From assembly GCA_034660995.1 (NCBI GenBank), contig JAYEKL010000063.1, positions 5,449-46,377 on the forward strand: DNA of 40,929 nucleotides. The letters run 5' to 3'. A program made the position numbers and the translations under genes. This document shows, in pieces, positions 7,144 to 40,929 of the stretch (the stretch's first letter is position 1; the number at the start of each line of letters is the position of its first letter). The notes under the pieces were generated by a model that saw nothing but the letters and a program-made list of their open reading frames with translations, was not told the DNA's origin and ran no database searches. This stretch comes from Patescibacteria group bacterium. GTDB lineage: Bacteria > Patescibacteriota > Minisyncoccia > JAHIHE01 > JAGLIN01.

Positions 7144-9450
7144 TTAAATCTCAATTTCAACTTCAAAAATTTTATCTCCATTTAATATATAAATCTTTTT
7201 ATTTTTTTCATCTACAATGATGTTTTTTAGATTATCAAACTTATTGCTAATGTATTGTCCTAATAGTTCTCCGCTTATCTTGTTAAAAAGTACGATTCTG
7301 TTTTTGGCTGAATCTGTAATATAAAGATATTCAAATTCTGGTTTGGTGTAAATTTCTGATGAGCTAGAGATTAATTCGCTTGGACTTTCTGTTGAAAATC
7401 CTATTACTTTTCTGCCACGATTAAACTTATCAATTAATCCATTTGAATTTAAAAGATAAATAGATCCGTCAATTGCCATTGATATAACATCTTCAATATT
7501 TTCATTTTCTTTTTCAAACCAGGTTTTTCCTGATGCAAAACTATTTGTTAGTTTTTTGTATTTGTAAATTTGGTTTGAATCTAATAGATATAGAAAATTA
7601 CTATAAGCGCTTAAATCTTTTAGTTTAGATATGTTTTCTGGAAGTTCTATCTCTATAGTTGAAAATGTTTCTTTGCTAATATCAAATATTCCCATTTTGT
7701 TAGAGTCTGTGGCGAATATAATTTCTTTGGTTTTTTCCATTGAAGTTGAAGCACTGCTTAGGTTTGCATTATCTTTAATTTTAATTTTAAAATCGGTTAT
7801 ATCTTTTTTAGTAAAGCTTATTCCGTTTAATGTTCCATTTTTTGAGTCAAATACAAAATACTTTTTGTTATCTTTAAATATTTTTTTAGGATCTTTAATA
7901 TCTTCTATTTGATTAAAATCAATTATTACTATTGGGTCTTCTATTCTGCTTACAAGATCAATTATGTCTAATTGTTTTTGGATTTCTTCTAATAAAACAG
8001 AAGCTTTAGCAGACAGTTGTTTATATCTCTCTTTATCGTCTAGTGAGATATTTCTTGTATTTATTATATTTTTTGCTTCAATCAAAGATTTTCTTGCCTC
8101 TGGTTGATTACTTATTGAATCTATTTCTGCTTTTTCTATTTTGTTTTCAGCTTGAATTAATAAACTAGCATAAGCGCTAAATTTTTCATTTTCACTGTCT
8201 GTATAATTTTTGAATATTAATCCTCCTATAAAGACAAATGCAATAAGTACAAATGTGACTAGTATCAATTTTTTTCTATTAGAGGATACCTTTACTTGTT
8301 GTGGAGATTCATCTTCAGATTTTGATTTTCTGACAAATTTAAAAATTGGAAGTATAATTTTATTTTTTATCAAAACAAAAATTTCTTTCAGCTTTTTTAG
8401 TAAATATTCAATTTTAGTTTCAGATTCTTCATCAAGTGAATCCATAAAATTGTTAGTTCTACTTTTTTCGTTTTGATGTTTTTCTTTAAATAATTCTAAA
8501 TTTTTGTCCACTTCTTTTTTTACTTCTATTTTATCCGATGGTTCTTTTTTTTCATACTTATCTATAATATCTTCAAGACTGAGTTTTTCTTTTTTTGTGG
8601 TTGTTTTTGATGGTTGCAGAATTTCTTTTTCAGTTTTATTAAAATTTGCTGGATCTTCAAGTTTTTCTTGTAGGATTGGAATAGCTTCTTTTTCTTCTCT
8701 TTTCTTCTCGACATTTTTTCTTTGTGGTTTTATTTTAATTTGAGTAAGCTTTTCTTCACTTTCTTTTCCAATTTTCATAAGCAATAAGCCCATTGTTTTA
8801 ATATCACTTTCTTTTTCAATGGAATCTTGAATAGTTTTTGCTAAATCTTCAATGGTCAAGGAGAAGGCTAGCTGTTTTAATTTTTCTATTGGAAATATTT
8901 CGAAAAGTTTAGGAGTGGCAAATAAAACAAGATCACCATCTTCTAATTCTCCATTGGCAATGTTAGTAAATGTTTTAAAAGGATGAGGTTTTTCTTCGTT
9001 GGTTATGTTCTTTCCTATGTCGGTAATTTGTTCATCTCTAATAAGGATAGTTTTGATTTTACCTGTTTGACTTATATGAAGTTCATTATTCATATACGCG
9101 CAGTATGTCATATTCAAATTTCCAATCCAATCTACATTTCCTTGTTCAGCAAGTTTGGAAAGTGTTGAATTTACTTTATGCAAGCTTGATTCCAAGCTTT
9201 CCATAGTTGATTTTCCTAAATTAGAGTTGGAATAAAACTCTTTCTTGGCAATTGAAACAAGAAGATTTATAAGATAGGAAGAATTTTCTGAAAAATCTAC
9301 GATTTCTCCAACGATATATAAATTTCCCAATGATTGCTCTTCAATATTTTCGGGTTCATAAATAAATATATCACAAAAAGATTTTCTTTCTTCACTTGAA
9401 AAAACAATTTCTTTCAAGTCTATTTTTATTTTCTTATTTAAACTTGCCAT
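7144..9450 (-). CDS. Large single-pass membrane protein of unknown function
   Basis: 768-aa uninterrupted ORF. It has a central TM helix (LILVTFVLIAFVFIGGLIF), a Lys/Glu-rich linker and an N-terminal domain of about 230 aa. That domain has a faint PP2C/SpoIIE-like pattern (weak). The C-terminal ~350 aa carries repeated beta-strand-like motifs (IYLLNSNG, LYITDSAKNRIVLF, IYILNGDKIFEV) suggesting a propeller. Confidence 0.6.
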   Translation of the reverse strand: MASLNKKIKIDLKEIVFSSEERKSFCDIFIYEPENIEEQSLGNLYIVGEIVDFSENSSYLINLLVSIAKKEFYSNSNLGKSTMESLESSLHKVNSTLSKLAEQGNVDWIGNLNMTYCAYMNNELHISQTGKIKTILIRDEQITDIGKNITNEEKPHPFKTFTNIANGELEDGDLVLFATPKLFEIFPIEKLKQLAFSLTIEDLAKTIQDSIEKESDIKTMGLLLMKIGKESEEKLTQIKIKPQRKNVEKKREEKEAIPILQEKLEDPANFNKTEKEILQPSKTTTKKEKLSLEDIIDKYEKKEPSDKIEVKKEVDKNLELFKEKHQNEKSRTNNFMDSLDEESETKIEYLLKKLKEIFVLIKNKIILPIFKFVRKSKSEDESPQQVKVSSNRKKLILVTFVLIAFVFIGGLIFKNYTDSENEKFSAYASLLIQAENKIEKAEIDSISNQPEARKSLIEAKNIINTRNISLDDKERYKQLSAKASVLLEEIQKQLDIIDLVSRIEDPIVIIDFNQIEDIKDPKKIFKDNKKYFVFDSKNGTLNGISFTKKDITDFKIKIKDNANLSSASTSMEKTKEIIFATDSNKMGIFDISKETFSTIEIELPENISKLKDLSAYSNFLYLLDSNQIYKYKKLTNSFASGKTWFEKENENIEDVISMAIDGSIYLLNSNGLIDKFNRGRKVIGFSTESPSELISSSSEIYTKPEFEYLYITDSAKNRIVLFNKISGELLGQYISNKFDNLKNIIVDEKNKKIYILNGDKIFEVEIEI

Positions 9451-34717: not shown

Positions 34718-37700
34718 TCAAACTACCACATTAATTAATCTTCCTTTTACGAATATAATTTTTTTAATTTCTTTTTCCTCAATCCATTTTTTTAATTTTT
34801 CACTTTCAAGAGCGATTTTTTTTGCTTCCTTCTCTGAAATATCTGCTGGGACTTTAATTTGGTCGCGGAGTTTTCCGTTGACTTGAATTACGAGCTGAAT
34901 TTCACTATTTTTGGTAAGCTCAGGATCAAATTCTGGCCAAGATTGCAGATGAATACTTTCTTTTTCTCCAGATAATTTCCATAGTTCTTCTGTAATATGC
35001 GGAGCAAAGGGGGAGAGGAGAATTAAAAATATTGGATATTGGATATTGGATATTGTTTTTTGTTTTTCCATTCCATTTGCAAGAATCATCAATGAACTAA
35101 TTGCTGTGTTGAATTTTAAATTTTCTATATCTTCAGTAACTTTTTTTATTGTTTGATGTAATAATTGTTCTATATTTTTATCTTGTAGGGGCGCAAGATT
35201 TTGCGCTCTCTCATTGTTTGTAGCAACAAGTAGGGACGCAAAATTTTGCGTTCTCGTTTTATCGGGGAACACAAGATTTTGTGTTCCTACTTTGCTTTGC
35301 ATTCCCCAAACTCTTTCTAGAAATCTGTTCATTCCAATTAAACTATGTGTGTTCCATGGAATTGCATCGCCATATGGACCCATAAACATCTCATAGAGTC
35401 TAATTGTGTCTGCTCCATATTCTTTGATAACTTCATCGGGATTTACGACGTTACCGCGCGATTTGCTCATTTTTTGTCCATCTTCGGAAAGTATCATTCC
35501 ATGCGATCTCCTTTTTATGTATGGCTCAGCGGTATTCACATATTTTAGATCAAATAAAAACTTGTGCCAAAAACGAGAATAAAGAAGATGCAAAGTTGTA
35601 TGTTCCATTCCGCCGTTATATAGATCAATAGGCATCCAGTGTTTTAATTTTTTAGACGAAGCAAATTCTTTATTATTTTTAGAATCTATATATCGCAAAA
35701 AATACCAGCTTGATCCAGCCCAATTTGGCATTGTATCAGTTTCTCTTTTTGCGCTATTACCACATTTTGGACATTTCACATTTACCCATTTATCAATTTT
35801 TGCAAGAGGGGATTCACCCGTATCCGTCGGTTCGTAATTTTTTACTTCTGGTAATTCAAGCGGCAAGTCTTTTTTAGATAATGAGATATTTTCAGTTATA
35901 TTTATTTTTTCAAATTCCCAGCCAACAAGTCCGTTTTTTTGAATTCTATCAACGTAATCTTTTGTAAAACTGTAAGTTTTTTTCAAGTCATCTAATTTAT
36001 TTATTTTGATTTCCGGAATAATATTTTTTATTAAATCTTTTTTTTCAAACAGCTCTTCCAGATTTTTGAAATTATAAACTGTCTTTATTTTTACAATTTC
36101 AAAATCATCCGTGTTTTTATTATTTATCTTTATCAGATCACCAATTTTTATGTCTCCGAAATATCTTTCTTTTTCTTCAGGATTTAAAGCTCTGGTTTCT
36201 ACGGTTTTTCTGTCTGCGATGATTTGATTCCAAACATTATCATCTCTAAAATTAAGCTCCATCTTAATTTTAAATCTCCTTGAACCACATTCTTTACACT
36301 TCACAATCGGAATCGGTTCGCCCCAATAATGCTGTCTCGAAAAAACCCAATCTCTTAATTTATAATTTACCGCCTTTTTGCCGAGTTTATTTTTTTCCAG
36401 CCATTCGGTTATTTCTTTTTTAAATTCAGCTGTTGTAAGTCCATTAAATTGTTCTGAATTTATGGCAATTCCGTCTTCTGATAAAAATTTTTCCCCATTT
36501 TGAAAAATATCCCAATGAATTTCTAATTCCGACAAATTTATAAAATCCTTTACCTTTTCTTTTTCTAGCCAAATGCCATTATGGTTTTTTACCTCCTCTT
36601 TTTTTGGTTCTATAAAACTGTTGTCTAATAATTCTATGTAAATACAATTTCTTTTCAAATCGCAACGATTAACATCTTTATGCGCCGCAAAAAAACGACT
36701 GTAAATTGTATTTCCAATTCTTTTAACAACACGCATATTTTGATAACCGGATTCTTCTTTTGCTTCTCTAAGAGCTGCTTCTTCAGCACTTTCTCCTTTT
36801 TCAATGCCACCGACTACAAAAGTTTTCCAATCATTTTTACTTTTACTCCAGTCTAAGCAAAAATATTCATCTTTTTCCCAGTGTTTAATAATTACATCCA
36901 CAACTTCTCTTTTTGTATTTTTTTTGTCTTTCCTGATTTTATTTTTACCCTCACCAATAAATAATGGCGCTATAACTTGTCTTATCTCCAACCCAAATTT
37001 TTTCGCAAACTCAAAATCCCTTTCATCATGCGCCGGCACCGCCATAATCGCGCCCGTGCCATAAGAAGCCAAAACATAATCCGCGATCCAAATTGGAATT
37101 TCTTCGTTATTAATCGGATTTATCGCTTTAATCCCTTTCAATTCAACCCCCGTTTTTTCTTTTGCCAAATCAGTCCTGTCTAAATCAGATTTTTGCTTAG
37201 CTTTTTCAATATATTTTTTCACTTCTTCCAAATTCAAAATTCTAGATTCCAAATTCTTTATCAAATTATGTTCAGGAGACAAAACCATATAAGTACATCC
37301 AAATAAAGTATCGGGTCTGGTGGTGAAAACTTCAATAAATTTTGAATTTTGAATTTGTAATTTTGAATTTATTTGTAATTTGGAATTTGTAATTTGGAAT
37401 TTAATAGTCGCTCCTTCCGATTTACCAATCCAGTTAATCTGCTGTGTTTTAATTTTATCTAAATAGTCAACTGTTTCTAGGTCTTTAATCAATCTGTTTG
37501 CGTATTTTGTTATTCTAAGCATCCATTGTTTCATAGTCTTCTTTTCTGTTGGCGCGCCGCATCTTTCGCAAGCATCATTGACAACTTCTTCGTTTGCTAA
37601 TCCTATTTTACAGTCGGGACACCAATTGATTGACATTTCCGCTTCATAAGCCATTCTTTGATTATCAATGTATTCTTTTTTCTCATTGTCGTTTAAATCT

Positions 37701-38194
37701 TTTGGAATTTTCAATTCTTCAATTGGACATGCTTTGTCTAATTTTTCATCATAAAAACTGTTAAACAATTTTAAAAAGATCCATTGTGTCCATTTATAAT
37801 ATTGTGGATCAGTTGTATTGATTTCACGCGACCAATCAAAACTAGGACCATAGCTTTTGATTTGACGAGTGAAGTTTTTAATATTATTTTTTGTTACGAT
37901 TTTTGGATGAGTTTTTGTTTTAATCGCAAAATTTTCTGTTGGCAAGCCAAAAGCGTCCCAGCCGATTGGGTACATAACATTATGTCCGTCCATCCTTTTT
38001 TTTCGCGCGACAATATCAATCGCAATATGACTTCTCAAATGTCCAACATGAAGCCCAGCTCCAGATGGATAGGGAAACTCAATTAAACAATAAAACTTTT
38101 TCTTTTTAGAAAAATCTTCCGCTTTATAAATGTTACTCTTGTCCCATTCTTTTTGCCATTTTCCTTCAATTTTTTGAGGGTTATATTTTTGCAT
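34718..38194 (-). CDS. leuS: Leucine--tRNA ligase with two large in-frame domain insertions and three repeat-derived insertions
   Basis: 1158 aa. Canonical landmarks in order: PYPSGAGLHVGH, WCPDCKIGLANEEV..CERCG, TTRPDTLFGCTYMVLSPEH, AVPAHDERDFEFAKKFGL, YKLRDWVFSRQHYWGEPIPI, RETDTMPNWAGSSWYFLRY, KMSKSRGN. Confidence 0.95.
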   Translation of the reverse strand: MQKYNPQKIEGKWQKEWDKSNIYKAEDFSKKKKFYCLIEFPYPSGAGLHVGHLRSHIAIDIVARKKRMDGHNVMYPIGWDAFGLPTENFAIKTKTHPKIVTKNNIKNFTRQIKSYGPSFDWSREINTTDPQYYKWTQWIFLKLFNSFYDEKLDKACPIEELKIPKDLNDNEKKEYIDNQRMAYEAEMSINWCPDCKIGLANEEVVNDACERCGAPTEKKTMKQWMLRITKYANRLIKDLETVDYLDKIKTQQINWIGKSEGATIKFQITNSKLQINSKLQIQNSKFIEVFTTRPDTLFGCTYMVLSPEHNLIKNLESRILNLEEVKKYIEKAKQKSDLDRTDLAKEKTGVELKGIKAINPINNEEIPIWIADYVLASYGTGAIMAVPAHDERDFEFAKKFGLEIRQVIAPLFIGEGKNKIRKDKKNTKREVVDVIIKHWEKDEYFCLDWSKSKNDWKTFVVGGIEKGESAEEAALREAKEESGYQNMRVVKRIGNTIYSRFFAAHKDVNRCDLKRNCIYIELLDNSFIEPKKEEVKNHNGIWLEKEKVKDFINLSELEIHWDIFQNGEKFLSEDGIAINSEQFNGLTTAEFKKEITEWLEKNKLGKKAVNYKLRDWVFSRQHYWGEPIPIVKCKECGSRRFKIKMELNFRDDNVWNQIIADRKTVETRALNPEEKERYFGDIKIGDLIKINNKNTDDFEIVKIKTVYNFKNLEELFEKKDLIKNIIPEIKINKLDDLKKTYSFTKDYVDRIQKNGLVGWEFEKINITENISLSKKDLPLELPEVKNYEPTDTGESPLAKIDKWVNVKCPKCGNSAKRETDTMPNWAGSSWYFLRYIDSKNNKEFASSKKLKHWMPIDLYNGGMEHTTLHLLYSRFWHKFLFDLKYVNTAEPYIKRRSHGMILSEDGQKMSKSRGNVVNPDEVIKEYGADTIRLYEMFMGPYGDAIPWNTHSLIGMNRFLERVWGMQSKVGTQNLVFPDKTRTQNFASLLVATNNERAQNLAPLQDKNIEQLLHQTIKKVTEDIENLKFNTAISSLMILANGMEKQKTISNIQYPIFLILLSPFAPHITEELWKLSGEKESIHLQSWPEFDPELTKNSEIQLVIQVNGKLRDQIKVPADISEKEAKKIALESEKLKKWIEEKEIKKIIFVKGRLINVVV
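35039..35065 (-). repeat. In-frame 7-nt tandem repeat (atattgg x about 3.9) inside leuS
   Basis: Plus strand atattggatattggatattggatattg. It encodes ISNIQYPI within the C-terminal anticodon-binding region. Confidence 0.85.
35183..35293 (-). repeat. Three in-frame palindromic units inside leuS
   Basis: gcgcaagattttgcgc (35191-35206), acgcaaaattttgcgt (35236-35251, perfect) and ggaacacaagattttgtgttcc (35266-35287). Centres are 45 and 33 nt apart. They translate as RAQNLAP / RTQNFAS / GTQNLVF. Confidence 0.85.
35870..36283 (-). other. ASCH/PUA-like module of about 138 aa inserted between the two halves of a LeuRS zinc knuckle
   Basis: Residues ~638-775 lie between KCKECG and KCPKCG. The pattern WNQIIADRKTVETRAL...IKIGDLIKI...FEIVKIKTV...LVGWEFEKI resembles ASCH domains such as E. 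coli YqfB (ILAGRKTITIRD...FKTGDVLRV...YVIEFKCL, recalled from memory). Confidence 0.5.
36494..36952 (-). other. Nudix hydrolase module of about 155 aa inserted after the LeuRS editing domain
   Basis: Residues ~415-567. The Nudix box GGIEKGESAEEAALREAKEESGY fits G-x5-E-x7-R-E-U-x-E-E-x-G-U exactly. Confidence 0.8.
37339..37401 (-). repeat. In-frame 7-nt-period repeat tract inside leuS
   Basis: Plus strand attttga attttga atttgta attttga ... atttgga atttgta atttgga. It encodes QITNSKLQINSKLQIQNSKF just before the editing-domain entry IEVFTTRPDT. Confidence 0.8.
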
Positions 38195-40089: not shown

Positions 40090-40929
40090 TTAATTGTTAT
40101 TGCATTCATTATTGCTTACATTACCAGAAGTTAAGCGCGGGAACAAAATCTCGCCTTTTTTTATTTTTATTCCAGATTTTAATCCGCCCCATATTTGCGC
40201 TTCTTTTAAGGTTTTATTTAATTCTCCTTTTTTTTCTTTTTCGTCCGCAAATAATTGCGCAAAAATTTTCATTGCAGTTTCTGGCATAAACGGATATATC
40301 ATCCAAGCGATATGGCGCAGGCTTTCTAATAAATTACAAATAATCTCATCTTTTTTCTTTCCTTCTAATTGCCATGGTTTTTCTTCTTCAATATATTTAT
40401 CGCAAACACTAATAAATTTCCAAATAGCATTTAAAGTTTCGTTTAATCTAAATTTATTTAAAGCATCTTCATATTCTTCCCAAGTTTTATTTGTGGTTGT
40501 TTGAAAATTAGAAATTGAAAATTGATTGGAAATTGGAAATTGGAAATTGGAAATTTTAGCCATTGATATAATCCTTGCTGTCAGATTTCCTAGTCCATTT
40601 GCTAAATCTGCCTGATAAACTTCTTCAAATCTTTCATAAGAAAAATTACCATCGCCATTAGAAGGAATTTCTTTCAGTAAATAATATCGCAAAGCGTCTA
40701 CTCCATATTTATCAATAACTTCAAATGGATCAACAATGTTGCCAAGTGACTTGCTCATTTTTTGTCCGTCAGATGTGATAAAGCCGTGAATAAATATTTT
40801 TTGAGGTAGTGAAAGACCAATAGACATTAGCATTGCTGGCCAGATAGCTGCATGAAAACGCAAAATGTCTTTGCCGATGACGTGGATATCGGCAGGCCAA
40901 AAATCAAGTAGAGGCTTAGCCTCCAGGTT
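40090..40929 (-). CDS. metG: Methionine--tRNA ligase, C-terminal part (N-terminus lies beyond the window end)
   Basis: The reading frame stays open to the window edge (…DFWPADIHVIGKDILRFHAAIWPAMLMS…GQKMSKSLGN). It includes the KMSKS loop and the anticodon-binding helical domain. Confidence 0.9.
   Translation of the reverse strand, partial: NLEAKPLLDFWPADIHVIGKDILRFHAAIWPAMLMSIGLSLPQKIFIHGFITSDGQKMSKSLGNIVDPFEVIDKYGVDALRYYLLKEIPSNGDGNFSYERFEEVYQADLANGLGNLTARIISMAKISNFQFPISNQFSISNFQTTTNKTWEEYEDALNKFRLNETLNAIWKFISVCDKYIEEEKPWQLEGKKKDEIICNLLESLRHIAWMIYPFMPETAMKIFAQLFADEKEKKGELNKTLKEAQIWGGLKSGIKIKKGEILFPRLTSGNVSNNECNNN
40501..40553 (-). repeat. In-frame 7-nt tandem repeat inside metG
   Basis: Plus strand ttgaaaa ttagaaa ttgaaaa ttga, then ttggaaa x4 (40526-40553). 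It encodes ISNFQFPISNQFSISNFQ with a 7-aa period. Confidence 0.85.

Follow-up and report, generated by a model that had tools for sequence, protein, structure and literature searches.

Accessory domains that also exist as stand-alone proteins, and that are joined to aminoacyl-tRNA synthetases (aaRSs) of several specificities, have been described before, namely, the EMAPII/Trbp111 tRNA-binding domains and the GNAT domain of certain isoleucyl-tRNA synthetases (IleRS), for which NCBIfam curates the family 'ileS_w_GNAT' (NF040702). We found the same combination of features in a 40,929-nucleotide stretch from a Patescibacteria group bacterium, hereafter the window (GenBank assembly GCA_034660995.1, contig JAYEKL010000063.1, positions 5,449 to 46,377 of the forward strand), whose leucyl-tRNA synthetase (LeuRS) gene carries an ASC-1 homology (ASCH, PUA-like) domain. 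However, unlike EMAPII/Trbp111 and ileS_w_GNAT, this domain is not terminal but nested in the loop of a zinc knuckle; orthologues may have it or lack it; and it occurs together with other nested enzymes, namely Nudix, Ham1, serine hydrolase and histidine phosphatase. As for the domain itself, its nearest solved relatives, PH0355, PF0455 and PF0469/PF0470, are stand-alone proteins of about 110 residues deposited as hypothetical proteins, whereas the window domain sits within a synthetase.

The ASCH fold and the LeuRS enzyme are both already known. As far as checked, the nested architecture, the distinct subfamily to which the domain belongs, its recurrence among synthetases of the candidate phyla radiation (CPR) and of DPANN archaea, and its behaviour as a cassette are apparently undescribed. 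Our searches of the literature on LeuRS with Nudix and on Patescibacteria LeuRS returned nothing relevant; ASCH itself was not covered by them, and a prior description is possible. The sole hint that we encountered in annotation is an automated product name from JGI, which reads 'ASC-1-like (ASCH) protein' on many relatives of the insert and, in one case, 'leucyl-tRNA synthetase/ASC-1-like (ASCH) protein' on a LeuRS.

The gene that hosts the insertion is the following:

34718..38194, minus strand: LeuRS host gene, 1158 aa (from the list of open reading frames, motifs, Pfam, NCBIfam and the match to Thermus thermophilus LeuRS)

This open reading frame encodes a bona fide bacterial-type LeuRS, which is otherwise complete. 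It scores 944.5 bits against the NCBIfam equivalog leuS_bact (TIGR00396; cut-off 548.4 bits), and it matches T. thermophilus LeuRS with an E value of 3e-194, in five aligned blocks, when compared by phmmer against the Protein Data Bank (PDB; entry 1H3N). The HIGH motif appears as HVGH at residues 49-52 and KMSKS is present at residues 908-912, and Pfam recognizes the class I core, the editing domain (CP1, approximately residues 254-410; tRNA-synt_1_2 at 2e-60) and the anticodon-binding domain (residues 1005-1122). The leucine-specific domain of the Thermus enzyme (approximately its residues 577-634), which is also found in E. coli LeuRS, is absent, and at 35459-35590 (residues ~869-912) the sequence 'HGMILSEDGQ' leads directly into KMSKS.

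The domain of interest, and the site that it occupies, were delimited as follows:

35888..36283, minus strand: nested ASCH (PUA-like) domain, residues S638-E769, of the 'ETRALNPEE' subfamily (indel relative to the related locus L081, AlphaFold2, Foldseek, profiles and phrog_19935)

Alignment with 1H3N pairs Thermus residues 374-443, which end in CEACG, with residues 568-637 of the window LeuRS, and Thermus residues 448-592, which contain CPKCG, with residues 773-916, leaving about 135 residues in the latter where the Thermus loop has 4. The exact limits were obtained from L081, the corresponding locus of a related genome, with which the window shares MetRS-TatD-LeuRS-PepF synteny and 77-82% nucleotide identity in the flanks of the insert. 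There, the site is empty, and the two sequences differ by a clean in-frame indel of 396 nucleotides, that is, 132 codons from S638 to E769, with the junctions lying at '...KCxxCG' on one side and at 'NISL..DLPLELP' on the other. Gene order as in the window, namely MetRS, TatD and LeuRS, followed by a peptidase of family M3 or M42 encoded on the opposite strand, is found both at L081 and at a second related locus, L082. Among the 120 LeuRSs closest to that of the window, an empty loop is 16 residues long and an occupied one 144-152. An initial annotation, based on the letters of the window, had proposed an insert of about 138 residues at 35870-36283, within a segment that it regarded as short in canonical LeuRS. 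This was essentially right, with the extent now refined to 132 residues at 35888-36283: related enzymes without the insert have a Thermus-like loop of 16 residues, and the peptide quoted for the insert is found as written in the translated frame. The insert has a GC content of 25.8%, as opposed to 33-36%; since GC at third codon positions is similar, we attribute the lower value to amino-acid composition.

The two sides of the insert correspond to the two halves of a putative zinc site:

36287..36298, minus strand: first half of the ZN-2 knuckle, C633-K-E-C636, directly upstream of the insert (aligns with CEAC of T. thermophilus; predicted local distance difference test, pLDDT, ~95 in a composite model)

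35762..35773, minus strand: second half of the ZN-2 knuckle, C808-P-K-C811 (aligns with CPKC of T. thermophilus; pLDDT 91-93)

In T. thermophilus LeuRS (1H3N, 2V0C) both CxxC pairs, which we take to form the ZN-2 zinc site, and the 'YWGxPIP' and 'LPxxLP...DTM' sequences flanking them align with the window protein, which differs in having a 132-residue domain between the first knuckle and the next strand. Both pairs are present in 42 of the 48 ASCH-bearing LeuRSs from genome representatives and neither is present in 5; the remaining one has a single knuckle because its sequence ends at a contig end, such that full-length enzymes with a single knuckle number zero. Joint retention or loss is the pattern expected from one metal site. 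A composite model of residues 591-847 (257 residues) has pLDDT values of 91-98 at both knuckles, with the domain also confidently modelled. The four cysteines, C633, C636, C808 and C811, may converge on one site. The initial annotation had read KCKECG and KCPKCG as two halves of a split four-cysteine knuckle. That reading agrees with the alignment to the Thermus CxxC pairs and with their being kept or lost together; of the positions given, KCKECG at residues 632-637 (36284-36301) stands, but KCPKCG lies at residues 807-812 (35759-35776), one residue away from the earlier numbering.

The identity of the insert as an ASCH domain escaped direct family searches. The Pfam family PF04266, a scan for which had been suggested in the initial annotation, gave no match at E≤10 to either the insert or the whole LeuRS; NCBIfam gave no match to the insert; and searches of the insert with Pfam, NCBIfam and single-sequence phmmer against the PDB yielded noise only (e.g. 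MreC, SAM_KIDINS220, Jo-In). Establishing the link required a family profile, and the following observations agree. First, the insert segment finds three relatives among 5.8 billion proteins, at E values of 1e-13 to 1e-20, and a profile of the insert family finds 102 proteins at E≤1e-3 among 1.84 billion cluster representatives; PF04266 recognizes 37 of the 52 short or stand-alone relatives so obtained (best 2.5e-12), and DUF3850 recognizes 14. Second, a profile built from an alignment of 29 close subfamily members (A4) matches the sequences of PH0355, PF0455 and PF0469/PF0470 over the full length, at 5.7e-8 to 3.3e-6. Third, an AlphaFold2 model of residues 640-769 has a mean pLDDT of 95.8 and a predicted template modelling score of 0.87, and its top Foldseek match is PH0355 (2Z0T; E 2e-8, template modelling score, TM, 0.77), followed by PF0455 (1S04), PF0470 (1XNE), EF3133 (1T62), a Lactobacillus crispatus 'ASCH domain' (3S9X) and 3IUW, the last of which carries the title 'activating signal cointegrator'. 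Fourth, the insert alone matches phrog_19935, an 'RNA-binding protein' family, at 2.5e-6. That residues 638-769 make up an entire ASCH (PUA-like) domain, and one that is confidently folded in the models, is therefore well supported, in line with the ASCH call that the initial annotation had made on pattern grounds, by models and profiles. ASCH-fold structures were also the best matches in the structural comparison that it had envisaged, in which the EVE/YTH reader fold was dropped after returning weak Foldseek matches only (YTH, E>0.2).

PH0355, PF0455 and PF0469/PF0470 are thus the nearest relatives of the window domain both by structure (Foldseek E values of 2e-8 to 4e-5, TM 0.68-0.77) and by profile. 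PH0355-type proteins have in common with it the K..E.R strand, the GD turn, the helical middle and the closing 'YG(V/I)xAIE' strand, and differ from it in lacking a strictly conserved 'ALNPEEPxRYFG' loop, which adds about five residues. The fold, size and KxxExR core of the window domain are those of Pfam ASCH PF04266 (ASC-1 homology); because that family gives no direct match to the insert of the window or to most of the copies embedded in synthetases, however, standard annotation misses them.

The residues that define the subfamily are concentrated in one segment:

36137..36208, minus strand: conserved motif K663-T-V-E666-T-R668-A-L-N671-P-E-E674-...-F679-G-D-I-K-I-G685-D686 (A4 alignment, 29 sequences)

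This segment combines the KxxExR core of ASCH domains with a subfamily-specific NPEE..RYFG loop and the GD turn. ASCH domains have the signature GxKxxExR, and the window reads D661-R-K663-T-V-E666-T-R668, with D at the first position where the family consensus has G. The K, E and R of the core are invariant throughout the A4 alignment. Of the xxIxxGxKTxExR-type pattern in the initial annotation, the core was recovered as K663, E666 and R668. The consensus of the subfamily in A4 is 'KT[IV]ETRALNPEEPxRYFGD', together with Y747 and G755. Across hosts, where identity is about 37-43%, nine residues are invariant and six near-invariant, and the conserved polar residues are the same in all hosts and in stand-alone copies; the domain family has a median isoelectric point (pI) of 6.8 and a median net charge of 0.

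A likeness to YqfB, which the initial annotation had drawn, did not hold to the same extent. E. coli YqfB (1TE7, 9KYF; its sequence was verified against PDB 1TE7) belongs to the same superfamily, and in an hhalign comparison with the insert family its K21, T24 and R26 lie opposite K663, E666 and R668. The probability of this alignment is 37%, and Thr24, which like other YqfB residues is said to have a catalytic role from work on that enzyme, is replaced by Glu666; the same comparison detected no conserved counterpart of the C-terminal acidic residue of YqfB in the subfamily. Because of the 37% alignment and the Thr to Glu replacement, a YqfB-type enzyme was rejected, and the window domain is better placed, by sequence, in the ASCH superfamily at large.

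How the domain is distributed among close relatives was examined by calling architectures, with local hidden Markov models, in the 120 proteins that most resemble the window LeuRS:

Nudix only: 50 of 120 LeuRSs

no insert: 15 of 120 LeuRSs

Ser-hydrolase, ASCH and Ham1: 13 of 120 LeuRSs

Nudix and Ham1: 9 of 120 LeuRSs

Nudix, ASCH and Ham1: 5 of 120 LeuRSs

ASCH and Ham1: 5 of 120 LeuRSs

ASCH only: 4 of 120 LeuRSs

other architectures: the remainder of the 120 LeuRSs

ASCH in LeuRS is therefore an optional cassette, and Nudix, Ham1 and serine hydrolase modules assort with it in many combinations, with core segments of the synthetase being 80-91% identical regardless of cargo. The domain is present in 30 of these 120 enzymes, and is intact in all 30. 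Association with the Nudix insert, a point raised by the initial annotation, is not obligatory: the two occur together in 8 enzymes, ASCH without Nudix in 22 and Nudix without ASCH in 69, and an obligate pairing was rejected on these grounds. In addition, a RBBP9/YdeN-type alpha/beta serine hydrolase of about 180-200 residues occupies the exact ZN-2 loop position of ASCH in four relatives (P0160, P0174, P0180 and P0188). Two of these other modules have left their mark on the window gene:

36494..36964, minus strand: Nudix cargo module, residues ~411-567, after the editing domain (Pfam NUDIX at 6.4e-10, residues 452-548; placed at a gap relative to T. thermophilus residues 363-374)

35183..35314, minus strand: Ham1/RdgB remnant, residues 961-1004 (three-way alignment with L081 and L082)

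The window Nudix is 83-89% identical to that of relatives lacking ASCH and 40-45% identical to that of relatives bearing it, and the ASCH domains of the latter are 65-77% identical to the window ASCH. These discordant nearest relatives suggest that the modules were gained, deleted or recombined independently. In the case of Ham1, at the position of window residues 961-1004, L081 and L082 each have about 185 additional residues that match this family (Pfam Ham1p_like reaches 3e-58 in the relative P0005). The window protein keeps only 'SLLVATNN' there, aligned with the start of the module, which the window LeuRS has thus lost. The segment at 35183-35314 has a higher GC content, of 43%, and contains three copies of a palindromic RCGCAAAATYTTGCGYCCC-like unit that is found nowhere else in the window. 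Four full-length LeuRS genes among the relatives (P0111, P0120, P0125 and P0135) are labelled by the automatic annotation of NCBI as 'RdgB/HAM1 family non-canonical purine NTP pyrophosphatase', a systematic mislabelling of an essential gene that is due to the nested Ham1 module. Other close relatives (P0141, P0142, P0158 and P0205) have further precomputed Pfam entries, namely PF13366, PF04480, PF18741, PF14907 and PF10706, which presumably include nuclease-like and nucleotidyltransferase-like families, and which suggest that nested cargo goes beyond the modules considered in this analysis.

Other peculiarities of the host gene were noted. At 37658-37759 (residues 146-179) about 33 residues are extra with respect to T. 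thermophilus LeuRS (SFYDEKLDKACPIEELKIPKDLNDNEKKEYIDNQ), and this insertion, which has no assigned domain, is conserved in L081 and L082. A 7-nucleotide tandem repeat, AATTTGG, present in 9.7 copies at 37338-37402, is missing or different in the same two orthologues; a related repeat, TTGGAAA, is found in 8.3 copies at 40501-40555, inside the MetRS gene. These repeats of the LeuRS and MetRS genes encode the peptide repeats NSKLQINSKLQIQNSKF and ISNFQFPISNQFSISNFQ, respectively.

Beyond close relatives, we scanned genome representatives, one per GTDB species, for the strict 9-residue pattern ETR[AV]LNP[ED]E, the counts of which are to be taken as lower bounds. At least 75 loci have this motif. 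Nearly all of them belong to Patescibacteria/CPR (Paceibacterota, Gracilibacteria, Absconditabacteria, Moranbacteria, Kerfeldbacteria, Uhrbacteria, Dojkabacteria and others), and five of the loci listed come from DPANN archaeal metagenome-assembled genomes (MAGs). The hosts among the loci listed include about 56 LeuRSs, in which the domain is always in the ZN-2 loop, 16 valyl-tRNA synthetases (ValRSs) and one threonyl-tRNA synthetase (ThrRS). In ValRS the domain occupies what appears to be the equivalent loop, past 'SRQ.WFGHRIP', or else a second site ahead of the editing domain, or still other positions; in ThrRS it lies at the N-terminal side, beside a RimI-like GNAT domain. Two further motif-bearing proteins (L049 and L058) read as CrtI/phytoene-desaturase-like, a label given from their sequence (MGPSWYLMPDVFE...) and not from a family-library scan, and P0007 and the locus L070 were listed with the CrtI-like and ThrRS contexts of ASCH. 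In metagenomes, one host matches the Pfam family of alanyl-tRNA synthetase (AlaRS) and another the class II Asp/Lys/Asn-type family, and the subfamily is also found in fusions to Nudix, Ser_hydrolase or GNAT. As separate proteins its members measure 115-135 residues, and one of them adjoins a MazG-like gene; the gene neighbourhoods of these copies followed no consistent pattern (MazG-like, POR subunits, Dus). The insert, which the initial annotation had read as a module grafted onto a synthetase, is thus no one-off graft, but a recurrent, optional feature of CPR synthetases. The nearest neighbour of an ASCH domain falls in the same host and site class in 63 of 86 cases, most exceptions being recoded LeuRSs, and identity is 43-56% within such classes versus 37-38% between them.

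In the MAGs labelled DPANN (Nanoarchaeota, Woesearchaeota and Pacearchaeota; L028, L033, L035, L043 and L044), LeuRS is of the bacterial type and its ZN-2 loop contains the same ASCH insert; the L035 enzyme scores 918 bits against leuS_bact. This suggests either that genes have passed between CPR and DPANN or that the MAGs were mis-binned. As for the recoded enzymes, in eight LeuRS genes (L030, L031, L037, L041, L052, L059, L069 and L073) the universally conserved tryptophans of DW.FSRQRYWGE and MPxWAGS have CGA or CGG as their codons, and UGA often occurs in frame; Absconditabacterales reportedly read CGA/CGG as tryptophan and UGA as glycine, and several of these records are titled 'Peribacteria'. 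Elsewhere in the window, three open reading frames have no Pfam match at E≤1e-4:

7144..9450, minus strand: open reading frame of 768 aa

12113..13873, plus strand: open reading frame of 586 aa

32986..34032, plus strand: open reading frame of 348 aa

With moderate confidence, we propose that the ASCH insert is a dispensable, self-contained cargo module that binds a ligand, and possibly hydrolyses it, outside the catalytic cycle of LeuRS and by a mechanism other than that of YqfB. C633, C636, C808 and C811 would clamp the entry and exit strands of the domain, such that the synthetase core would fold normally and ASCH would project as an autonomous module from the tip of the ZN-2 loop, without being required for aminoacylation. 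The module may bind, or even hydrolyse, a ligand derived from a nucleotide or from RNA, which would sit in the canonical cleft of ASCH domains, lined by the invariant K663, E666, R668, N671, E674, F679 and Y747, and it may act beside nucleotide house-cleaning cargo, such as Nudix, Ham1 and the MazG neighbour of a stand-alone copy. Autonomy is argued for by the stand-alone copies, the fusions and the non-homologous sites that the subfamily occupies in several synthetases and outside them, whereas the invariance of the polar residues in all hosts, together with the near-neutral median pI and net charge, argues for a pocket that takes up a ligand and against a general RNA-binding surface. A number of points weigh against this proposal. 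About 72 of the 75 motif loci listed (~96%) are embedded in synthetases, which fits a tRNA-related role and not pure hitch-hiking; an association with RNA is usual for ASCH and PUA-like domains, and the label of phrog_19935 points the same way; and the nearest solved structures (PH0355, PF0455, PF0470) are deposited as hypothetical proteins. The isolated composite fragment superposes poorly on LeuRS, with a root-mean-square deviation of 12.8 Å, and dispensability would follow from natural presence and absence among relatives.

The same bias toward synthetases is what makes it possible, though in our view rather doubtful, that the domain acts in cis on tRNA, contacting the CCA or acceptor end or an N4-modified cytidine, and thereby raising affinity or reporting modification in the manner of EMAPII/Trbp111. 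PUA domains bind CCA ends, and the recurrence of identical invariant residues in hosts that extend to AlaRS-type and class II Asp/Lys/Asn-type enzymes would be in keeping with a ligand shared by every tRNA; by our reading, the site in LeuRS and one of those in ValRS seem to be equivalent loops, past 'SRQ..WG..IP', and the window LeuRS has no leucine-specific domain. However, orthologues whose cores are 80-90% identical manage without ASCH, a serine hydrolase can fill the same loop, and the positions used (before CP1, in the zinc loop, N-terminal, or where the OB fold gives way to the catalytic core) are non-homologous and imply different tRNA geometries; moreover, the family is not basic, and it is also found outside aaRSs and as separate genes. 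Another possibility, a hydrolase that proof-reads or repairs aminoacyl-tRNA derivatives, for example by N-acyl removal or by deacylation of mischarged tRNA in trans, we regard as improbable. It would draw on YqfB being an ASCH amidohydrolase (PDB 9KYF is titled N(4)-acetylcytidine amidohydrolase), on the co-occurrence of GNAT domains in some hosts, and on a preference for LeuRS, ValRS, ThrRS and AlaRS-type hosts, which are editing enzymes, but the alignment with YqfB and its Thr24 position speak against it, as does the class II Asp/Lys/Asn-type host, which to our knowledge has no editing function.

That close relatives do without the domain, and that Ham1, the module next to it, survives in the window gene as a decayed remnant only, could also mean that ASCH is functionless filler, either decaying or purely structural, in a permissive loop. 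This is hard to reconcile with nine invariant and six near-invariant residues at such low identity across hosts, with a full-length domain modelled at high confidence, and with its integrity in every close relative that carries it, and we consider it very unlikely. Least probable of all, to the point of being hardly credible, is a selfish mobile element, intein-like or with a homing endonuclease, that is spliced or propagates itself. In its favour, orthologues show clean presence and absence at an identical site, and some related LeuRSs carry PF13366 and PF04480, which we take to be of nuclease type. Yet the insert starts with Ser-Arg-Arg and ends with Ile-Thr-Glu, with no His-Asn, and is followed by Asn; its fold is that of ASCH and not of Hint or an endonuclease; and the junctions show no flanking repeats beyond AT-rich chance. 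With neither hallmark residues nor target-site duplication at the junctions, the intein or mobile-element option was rejected. Our preferred reading continues to be that of a ligand-binding cargo module.

Synthetases are highly conserved, and the accessory domains that they acquire usually reveal links between translation and other processes. In the present case, the nested fold is one that is known but little understood. The reach of the subfamily described here, which includes ValRS, ThrRS, AlaRS-type and class II Asp/Lys/Asn-type hosts, extends over ultra-small symbiotic bacteria and archaea. It also bears on annotation errors, given that Pfam is blind to the domain and that several LeuRS relatives are named by NCBI after their Ham1 cargo. 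Clean presence or absence of the module in orthologues provides a natural experiment on the function of ASCH and on why reduced genomes pack extra enzymes into their synthetases. It may tentatively be suggested that aaRS genes of CPR, and of some DPANN, serve as landing pads for exchangeable in-frame cassettes (ASCH, Nudix, Ham1, Ser-hydrolase, His-phosphatase and GNAT), which orthologues would gain, lose and recombine, and among which the 'ETRALNPEE' ASCH would be a synthetase-specific module that acts on tRNA, for instance at the CCA end or at an N4-modified cytidine, across LeuRS, ValRS, ThrRS and other enzymes.

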